From Octopus vulgaris (taxonomy: Eukaryota), in the NCBI GenBank assembly GCA_951406725.2, contig OX597814.1:154442001-154506000 (forward strand): a DNA stretch of 64,000 nucleotides. The letters are read 5' to 3'. The notes below the pieces were generated by a model, which made no database searches, was not told where the DNA came from, and saw nothing but the letters and a program-made list of their open reading frames with translations. Made by a program: the position numbers and the translations under genes. Below are positions 20,914 through 63,129 of this stretch, piece after piece. Positions within the stretch are counted from its first letter, which is position 1. Every line of letters begins with the position of its first letter.

Positions 20914-20990
20914 CTTGGAGCAATCTCGAGTATAAACAGCCGAAATTGCAAAGATAATCTGGAACTCGACTGAGGATAGAAAACTCTGAA
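20914..20990 (+). ncRNA. Non-circularly permuted hammerhead candidate, copy A (5'-truncated)
   Basis: GCAAU(20920-24)-C-UCGAGU(20926-31)...CAGCC-GAA-AUUGC(20937-49)...ACUCGA(20964-69)-CUGAGGA(20970-76). The upstream stem II strand is missing. The host element runs to ~21098 and then (TA)n. Confidence 0.65.
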
Positions 20991-21139
20991 TGATCCGTCC
21001 TTGTTTTCCTTGTATCGTCTGTCTGGATATTTTGTTTTCCTTTTTGAGTTTCACTTAACTGTCTGGATGTTTTGCATTCTTGTCCCATTTTTGTATTTTA
21101 TATATATATACACATATGTATGTACGTGCACATACACAC

Positions 21140-32294: not shown

Positions 32295-32824
32295 CTACAA
32301 TTAGATTGTTGCAGCTTATAATTACACATACACACACATAGAGAAAAGTGGATATTAGTACATGTGAGAATCGAAACCACACTTCTTATATTCACAATAA
32401 GTGTGCTAACTAATTACACCAACCTACCCATGGACTTCTTCCAGTTGAATATAAGAGGTGTGGGTTCAGTTTCCATGCATACTAAAACTCACTATTTTCT
32501 GTTGAAAGCTTATATGCCCCAATATTAGACACAACCTCACGATTGTAAGCTCGATGCTCTAACCACTGAGCCATGCACCTTCACACACATGCACACACAC
32601 ACATACATATATATATATAGGATCGTTTGTAGAAATACATAAATCTGGAGGAGAAGCACATTCTAAGATGTAAAATAGTTAATATTATAGAGGGGTAGAC
32701 TGAATGATAGGGTTAACATGAGTTTCTTGCTGATAAGAGGTTCAGCCTTACAGCGTATCTTCAGACCCTATGTGTGTGTGTATTTACATATAGAGATACA
32801 TGCCTTTGTAGAAGCAGATGTACC

Positions 32825-47949: not shown

Positions 47950-47987
<38 letters not shown>

Positions 47988-48097
47988 ATACATAATGGGA
48001 CAAGAACGCAAAACTTCCGGACAACTAGGTGATACAAAAAGGGACAACAAAGCATCCAGATAGACGATATAAAGAAAACAAGGACGGGTCATTCGAA

Positions 48098-48191
48098 GCT
48101 TTCTATCTACAGTCAAGAACCAGATTATCCTCGCAATTTCGGCTGATTATTCTTGAGATTGCTCCAATCTGGCCAGCCCCAAGGAAAAAAC
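48098..48191 (-). ncRNA. Non-circularly permuted hammerhead candidate, copy B (core CUGUAGA, probably A6U-inactivated)
   Basis: Minus strand reads GGCUG-g-CCAGAUU-gga-GCAAU-C-UCAAGAA-uaau-CAGCC-GAA-AUUGC-gaggau-AAUCUGG-UUCUUGA-CUGUAGA. All four helices pair perfectly. Confidence 0.7.
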
Positions 48192-62402: not shown

Positions 62403-62850
62403 ATCCCTGGATTCTGCGACATAAATGTTAAACGAAACGCTGCAAACTATGCATAGCCGAATGCACGGAAATCCAATGAACCATTGTGTAAAGTAGTAAA
62501 GTTAGGACGTTTGTAGGGCCGTGCTTGCACTTTATGAGGTTAATGCTGGTATTTTGGGAATCGCATAATAGCGGTAATAGCGAAAATAACACTACAGCGG
62601 GAAGTTGATTGCTGATGAGAGAGAGAGATAACCTTCTATTGTTTACCGTCATAGTTGAAAGATGGCAACACGGCCGAAAGCCGATAGCCAGCAGCAAAGG
62701 GAGATAATCACCTTGTTTACACCCGTATCGTTCCCCTCTCATATCTTAAAGAGGTCATAGGCTAACAGGTCTTAGGGTCTGAAGATACGCCATAAAGATA
62801 TCCTTTATGGCGAGAAATCCGGGGTAACACTATAAACCGGTCTTCGTACC
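62403..62850 (+). mobile_element. Penelope-like element 3' fragment
   Basis: IPWIL...KRCKLCIAECTEI (62403-62473) matches the PLE C-terminal motif. Followed by a hammerhead at 62773. Confidence 0.6.
62773..62832 (+). ncRNA. Type I hammerhead ribozyme with long stem II (PLE-associated)
   Basis: UAGGGU-CUGAAGA-ua-CGCCAUAAAG-auauc-CUUUAUGGCG-a-GAAA-UCC-g-GGGUA-ACACUA. Confidence 0.8.
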
Positions 62851-62930
62851 ATGCTCTCCATTTTTTTGTCTTTGTTACCGTACACATTCACTAGCTTTCT
62901 TACAAAAAAATCTAATGCTCTTAGCTTAGA

Positions 62931-63020
62931 CTTTTTTGTTGGCAACCAGATCGAACTGTCTCAAGTGTAACTGCCCGAAACAGTAAGAACTTCTGGTAAC
63001 TTGACTGAGGAAAGAAGACC
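62931..63020 (+). ncRNA. Non-circularly permuted hammerhead ribozyme candidate, copy C (intact core, GUC site)
   Basis: Stem III ACUGU(62955-59)/ACAGU(62980-84), C17 at 62960, stem I UCAAGU(62961-66)/ACUUGA(62999-63004), CUGAGGA 63005-11, GAAA 62977-80, stem II GGCA(62941-44)/UGCC(62972-75), extra helix ACCAGA/UCUGGU. Confidence 0.7.
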
Positions 63021-63129
63021 CCGAATGACTCGTTCGTTTTTTTCCCTCTCCTAATTGTTGTTTTTCCTGTCCGCCTTTGTATCGTCTATCTGCCCGAATG
63101 TTTTATTGTTCCGTTTTTGTCCATTATAT

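Follow-up and report, generated by a model that had tools for sequence, protein, structure and literature searches.

A hammerhead-like RNA with a split core and permuted strand order, predicted in octopus repeats and in Naiad retroelements

The window, a 64,000-nucleotide stretch of Octopus vulgaris contig OX597814.1 (positions 154,442,001 to 154,506,000), holds three copies of a non-coding repeat family with units of about 700-850 bp that targets (TA)n tracts and forms tandems (Table 1). The first-pass annotation had assigned to these copies a hammerhead ribozyme in a rearranged strand order, and re-reading of the sequence confirmed its coordinates and motifs for all three. In a BLAST comparison of the 62.9k copy with the full unit, positions 62861-63109 were covered at 88%.

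Table 1. Positions in the window of the three repeat copies and of the predicted ribozyme parts of the 62.9k copy
Feature	Positions	Strand	Remarks
5'-truncated non-coding repeat copy, subfamily A, followed by a (TA)n tract	62846..63125	+	ends read from sequence
62.9k copy: 5' strand of stem II (IIa, from position 10.1), detached from A9	62940..62944	+	
62.9k copy: 5' strand of P4 (P4a); the helix ties the distal ends of stems I and II	62945..62950	+	
62.9k copy, S block: IIIa 62955-62959, U16.1, C17 62960, Ia 62961-62966	62955..62966	+	
62.9k copy: predicted cut 3' of C17	62960	+	5' ends of sister copies cluster just 3'
62.9k copy, G block: IIb 62972-62976, G12 62977, A13, A14, A15.1, IIIb 62980-62984	62972..62984	+	
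62.9k copy: 3' strand of P4 (P4b)	62992..62997	+	
62.9k copy: Ib 62999-63004 and CUGAGGA (C3-A9) 63005-63011, G5 = 63007	62999..63011	+	
Second copy (48.1k), subfamily C: C17 48157, G12 48140, CUGUAGA 48112-48106	47987..48189	-	
Third copy (20.9k), subfamily B: C17 20925, CUGAGGA 20970-20976	20915..21099	+	

The three junction strands of each copy lie where they had been reported, but no copy is intact. Position 10.1 is U in the 62.9k copy as compared to G in subfamily A, due to which its stem II opens with a U-C mismatch, and no stem II partner follows its CUGAGGA, only 1 bp being possible directly 3' of A9. This copy is an old insertion, carries the 10.1 mismatch and may be either slow or inactive. 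The 48.1k copy displays all four helices intact and has A6U as its core defect (CUGUAGA), and the 20.9k copy starts 11 nt 5' of the cut site and lacks the upstream strands IIa and P4a; stem II and the fourth helix (P4), earlier attributed to all three copies, are thus present in two of them. As every window copy is damaged, the argument must rest on the family.

A descriptor for the S-G-C order (S, cleavage strand; G, GAAA strand; C, CUGANGA strand) with 4-bp stems I and III detected 2 sites in the window, as compared to a mean of 0.1 in 30 resampled windows; the 48.1k copy escapes this descriptor due to its CUGUAGA core. Hammerheads and other ribozymes are absent among the 71 Rfam matches of the window at E<=5, in agreement with the earlier statement that standard hammerhead searches are blind to the motif. 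A tRNA-like Rfam match above the gathering score, probably a SINE head, is located at 32356-32428 of the minus strand.

The strand order of the family is IIa - P4a - [IIIa-UH-Ia] - [IIb-GAAA-IIIb] - P4b - [Ib-CUGANGA]. The succession of cleavage strand, GAAA strand and CUGANGA strand, with crossing helices, that had been noticed in the window copies is also found in the subfamily representatives, whose core motifs and helices bear out a core made of four pieces. CUGANGA 3' of stem I, GAAA between stems II and III, and NUH between stems III and I are present in 11 out of 11 representatives. When 14 rows, hand-picked to represent subfamilies, were aligned, 97.6% of the 210 cells of stems I-III were paired, and both-sided changes were recorded at 8 of the 15 pairs (stem II 3/5, stem III 4/5, stem I 1/5); these covariation figures lean favourable, as the rows are mutually related and the structure was derived from them. 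In 500 shuffles, neither the paired fraction nor the covariation score was attained, and with slid registers pairing is 14-43%. Covariation had been overstated from the three damaged window copies alone; the case is carried by the subfamilies seen genome-wide and by the Naiads.

The closing pairs G10.1-C11.1 and A15.1-U16.1 occur in 14/14 rows, in every one of which the G10.1 partner of C11.1 is supplied by the upstream strand. The spacing from 10.1 to H17 is 20-21 nt in all 11 representatives, an unrelated Naiad family included. Upstream stem II runs comprise 5-6 bp in nine of the 11 representatives and 4 and 3 bp in two older copies, the best run of representative J being 3 bp. The detachment of this strand from A9, and its upstream location, were correctly recognized in the first-pass annotation, but the distance from A9 to 10.1 is 69-74 nt in the 11 representatives rather than about 65. 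In none of these does a position 10.1 follow A9 within 0-2 nt, and the nucleotides after A9 form at most 2 bp with the strand before GAAA.

P4 is paired in 94% of cells over 20 rows, with covariation at 1/5 pairs in this genome; P4a follows IIa and P4b precedes Ib, each within 0-3 nt. The NUH triplets kept across unrelated families are GUC, AUC, GUA, AUA and UUC. Folding energy revealed no excess stability (z -0.95 to +0.70) under a model without pseudoknots, in which the crossings are not represented.

Other identities of the motif were considered and rejected. Chance occurrence is ruled out by window resampling, by reversed-pattern controls of 0 and by covariation. A type I-III hammerhead, which needs the cyclic order S, C, G, is excluded by the S, G, C order and by the lack of an Rfam match, which in the window extends to any Rfam ribozyme. 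An HDV-like reading of the downstream GAAUG is opposed by the absence of an Rfam match and by the absence of GAAUG from the Naiad family that shares the fold. A canonical stem II further downstream was also sought; over the 33 nt that follow A9 the longest run is 1-5 bp, and its register is not fixed.

Exact motif patterns gave 5,710 and 7,362 matches in the 2.8-Gb genome and 0 with reversed controls, which sets the copy number by exact-motif matches at at least 7,362, and at least 10 subfamilies were distinguished. Full units are bounded by (TA)n at both ends, the 5' tract lying about 520 nt upstream, and a 5'-truncated copy often stands in front of them. Of 182 matched copies (some loci counted twice), 143 have a (TA)4 or longer tract in the next 260 nt, as compared to 15% of random stretches. 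There are 22 close pairs of copies (partial tandems), and young subfamilies have tandem copies at 755-859 nt. The youngest subfamily displays three identical 843-bp units head to tail, with a 99.8% identical copy 42 Mb away; these are non-coding tandem units with one ribozyme each, as in retrozymes. The identical units (L161:2290-3975; G000:C1, 53.59 Mb) have no (TA)n between them, whereas units of older subfamilies are (TA)n-separated, which suggests a very young, retrozyme-like subfamily.

Inspection by eye of the open frames upstream of the copies of subfamilies A-K revealed no ORF with an N-terminal GIY-YIG endonuclease and a reverse transcriptase, and no autonomous partner for these subfamilies was found there. 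As the 5' Naiad motif has 0 exact matches in the genome and the Naiad-type copies examined are 5'-truncated, it is through the published consensus that the Naiad-type family is linked to an ORF. In raw RNA data of another species, three runs contain 1, 3 and 6 reads of the element; contigs from one presumed-RNA run span the unit and do not display RNA ends. A GNRA-loop hairpin (GAAA or GUAA), located about 150 nt 5' of the ribozyme (L002:1370-1395 and equivalents), is kept in subfamilies A, C and F, and on the reverse strand it resembles a decayed CUGANGA. The flanks of L036, L046 and L084 hold another repeat, with a canonical-order hammerhead-like core on the reverse strand, which is probably a separate Penelope-like element (PLE) family.

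Cleavage of the template RNA after C17 should make reverse transcription run off at that point, and the 5' ends of genomic copies were analysed in two samples. The first sample comprised the first 100 contig 1 copies that match a pattern located entirely 3' of the cut; in 33 of these the start lies at +1 to +13, one of these starts being an internal deletion and one an inversion junction; 7 begin exactly at +1 (U1.1), 4 of which were reassigned on inspection as the aligner had scored -3 across the C17 mismatch. A (TA)n or (TG)n tract immediately precedes six of the 7. Of the 67 copies outside the +1 to +13 range, a single one starts at -4 to -16 (Fisher p 8e-8). The second sample, which overlaps the first in part, consisted of 100 copies anchored in the 3' tail, 97 of them placed; 15 of 63 copies at risk end in +1..+12, whereas the 12 nt preceding the cut contain 1 end among 48 copies (p 9e-4) and the figure for 12-nt bins elsewhere is 3.9% (p 2e-8). 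Subfamily A, that of the 62.9k copy, shows a weak pile-up, with 3/30 starts at +1..+12 and none at +1. Part of the peak is contributed by microhomology to the (TA)n target, since A and T predominate in the +6..+11 linker, with 3 AT/TA steps per 12 nt versus 0-2 in most bins. With the full unit as query, none of the front copies of partial tandems starts at the cut. Two Naiad-type copies (L102:863-950 and 1465-1552) begin at the predicted cut behind (TA)n, and their starts are ambiguous since the two bases before the cut are TA.

Naiad PLEs insert in (TA)n and, according to the available text of Craig et al. 2021 (PMC8557442), are devoid of canonical hammerheads; that text lists eight Naiad cases with unexplained 'half cores', the Octopus vulgaris/sinensis family among them ('HHR_half_core'), and offers no fold for these. 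When the last 330-600 nt of 51 consensus sequences in its available supplement were read by eye, three further ends being left out, the split layout with helix sequences of its own was recognized in 9 of the 51 3' ends, namely two Octopus, three Acropora, Morbakka-2, Clytia-3, the clam shrimp EuTe and Beroe. These represent six independent sequence types in four phyla, the hosts being octopus, corals, a box jellyfish, Clytia, a clam shrimp and a comb jelly. Stem I of the Beroe (comb jelly) Naiad has only 2 bp, and the split layout of the Euprymna Naiad, as judged by eye, is doubtful. Layouts in species other than Octopus were judged by eye alone; for the 3' UTR of the Octopus Naiad, the four helices (6, 6, 5 and 5 bp) and the 21-nt spacing were confirmed by program, with helix sequences that differ from those of the repeat. 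Its 3' UTR motif has 273 exact matches in this genome and 0 in the reversed control.

The window element and the published Naiads (PMC8557442) both target (TA)n and form partial tandems led by a 5'-truncated copy; a T-rich 3' end and the ribozyme layout, placed in the 3' UTR in Naiads, are also common to them. Naiads encode an ORF, whereas the window element has none. The link to a PLE-like retroelement suggested earlier therefore stands, in the form of a non-autonomous unit with a ribozyme design common to Naiad PLEs.

Eckert et al. 2023 (PMC10085705), in the text available, divide the hammerhead into three blocks that 'cannot be interrupted', with six possible orders, and the RNAmotif descriptors given there for types SGC, CSG and GCS all require stem II right after CUGAUGA. 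The octopus RNA shares its S-G-C order with type-SGC (HRIMA-1) of that source; in reply to the question raised at first reading, the order itself is already published, but the A9/G10.1 break was not found in print. Stem II of type-SGC lies directly 3' of CUGANGA, whereas in the octopus RNA the strand and the P4 arm lie 5' of the S block; type-SGC is known from metatranscriptomes beside hairpin ribozymes, and the split form from animal retroelements. Type-CSG, represented in the same source by two soil-DNA sequences, matches the octopus RNA in order and spacing from IIa onward (IIa, interaction strand, III-UH-I, UUAAU-like linker, II-GAAA-III). Type-CSG opens with its interaction strand, stem I strand and CUGANGA, which are connected to IIa, whereas these three elements close the octopus RNA, where the A9-G10.1 link is absent. 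In the pseudoknot (pistol-like) hammerhead 8YDC, which is fast and retains the G8/G12 mechanism (PMC11300833, available text), the helix that takes the place of stem II is likewise completed, for the greater part, by a distant strand upstream. It differs from the octopus RNA in that G10.1 is joined to A9 and forms a 1-bp stem with C11.1, the block order is circular, and loop II pairs with the loop of helix IV.

The octopus RNA is closest to types SGC and CSG and, judged by its sequence, is a member of no published type, since the defining link between A9 and stem II is absent. Known animal (non-LTR) retrozymes carry a type I hammerhead in units of another size, unlike the octopus units, which measure 700-850 nt, contain a ribozyme that is not type I and are known from DNA sequence. 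According to its available text, bioRxiv 10.64898/2026.07.22.740005 describes animal retrozymes that are likewise non-coding, PLE-derived and tandem, with one ribozyme per unit. Neither a split C block nor permuted hammerheads in Naiads were found in the literature searched, the scope of which excluded subscription papers, repeat-database entries and preprint supplements; no split C block is described in the available text of that preprint, PMC13725137, PMC11167929 or PMC3088659.

Types CSG and SGC seem to be represented among Naiads as well. By eye, in the available supplement of PMC8557442, six nematode Naiads (Hcon, Hpol, Nbra-1/2/3, Asuum) show a complete type-CSG with an unbroken C block and an interaction helix, and the spider Naiad_Smim resembles an ordinary type-SGC with long inserts. 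Soil DNA, with a few sequences, had been the sole known source of type-CSG, and it is a matter of speculation that these might derive from Naiads of soil invertebrates. Naiad_Ptep and the ostracod Dst-1 and Dst-3 may represent another split form, with the 5' strand of stem II between the S and G blocks. The bivalve, hemichordate and Clytia-1/2 Naiads end in a different conserved motif, GGGUG ... GCUYAC ... CACCUG, which is structured-looking and non-hammerhead, and is a candidate for another self-cleaving RNA.

The family is predicted from these sequence features, with a probability of about 0.8, to be catalytically active as a hammerhead in a new strand arrangement; the estimate is lower for the 62.9k copy itself. 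In hammerheads G12 acts as general base and the 2'-OH of G8 as acid, and the sheared A9-G12 pair lies beside G10.1-C11.1 (PMC11300833, available text). The standard active site would form in the split RNA with the same G12 base and G8 2'-OH acid and with the pairs G8-C3 and A9-G12, and the upstream strand would supply G10.1-C11.1 and the rest of stem II, so that the sole missing piece would be the A9-G10.1 backbone link. The A9 phosphate and the G10.1 base bind a metal ion in hammerheads, and both would stay in the split core. Natural hammerheads tolerate single-base insertions at the A9/10.1 step. A U is shown at this step in published descriptors (PMC10085705, available text).

P4 would stack on or beside stem III and join the far ends of stems I and II, thereby doing the job of the 'interaction' helix of types SGC and CSG. 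SGC, CSG, GCS and the split RNA can all be drawn as one closed circle of strands opened at different bonds, the split RNA being opened inside the core, and partial tandems may be the route between permutations. The ribozyme would cut read-through or tandem transcripts of Naiad PLEs and of their non-autonomous derivatives of 700-850 nt; the Naiad reverse transcriptase would copy the cut RNA into (TA)n sites and run off at the cut, leaving copies that start at U1.1 or a few bases later.

It is unlikely that the RNA is instead active as a dimer, in which two molecules swap strands into ordinary three-way junctions and the crossed monomer is not the working form. Minimal PLE hammerheads do work as dimers, a self-complementary stem I strand is found in subfamily B and in the Naiad of the box jelly, and copies of young subfamilies are arranged in tandem at 755-859 nt. 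In most families, however, stem I is not palindromic, the fixed 20-21 nt spacing and the short linkers suit one compact fold, and the A9/G10.1 break would persist in a dimer too; the published SGC and CSG RNAs, moreover, cleave during transcription (PMC10085705, available text).

A degenerate type-SGC with a vestigial stem II right after A9, the IIa-IIb helix being an off-switch or an alternative fold, is quite unlikely. Octopus subfamilies do have a G 2-3 nt after A9, and the available texts describe natural hammerheads with a 1-2 bp stem II or a 10.1 mismatch (PMC3088659) and a pseudoknot hammerhead that retains only G10.1-C11.1 (PMC11300833). Against this stand the limit of 2 bp at 0-2 nt after A9 in all 11 representatives, the absence of this G from the Naiads of clam shrimp, box jelly and comb jelly (available supplement), and the upstream helix, which always starts with a G exactly opposite C11.1, the register of a true stem II.

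Least probable of all is a non-catalytic, hammerhead-derived binding site for reverse transcriptase with 5' ends clustered through microhomology or stalling: insertion in vitro did not require the hammerhead of a Poseidon PLE, at whose cut no read ends were seen (PMC11167929, available text), and clustering is weak in subfamily A, but unrelated families retain every catalytic position and a legal NUH triplet, 7/100 copies start exactly at U1.1 without C17, and a structural stall is not expected at +12, since by that point a polymerase moving 3' to 5' will already have unwound all four helices.

Many Naiads probably end in non-circularly permuted hammerheads, a widespread form of which opens the circle between A9 and G10.1, and the octopus form probably drives a young, non-autonomous, retrozyme-like family with thousands of copies whose 5' ends record cleavage in vivo. 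If true, the hammerhead would be a permutable RNA of four blocks and not of three; the stated rule that CUGANGA and stem II are inseparable would be broken, opening a wider range of hammerhead topologies, and current searches would undercount hammerheads. Non-circular permutations would move from anonymous metatranscriptome contigs to animal genomes, in thousands of copies, and the 'half cores' left unresolved in Naiads would be explained. The role of PLE ribozymes would become testable because the 5' ends of copies mark the cut, and the CSG and SGC forms of Naiads would provide a natural series in which to follow the origin of permutations within tandem repeats.
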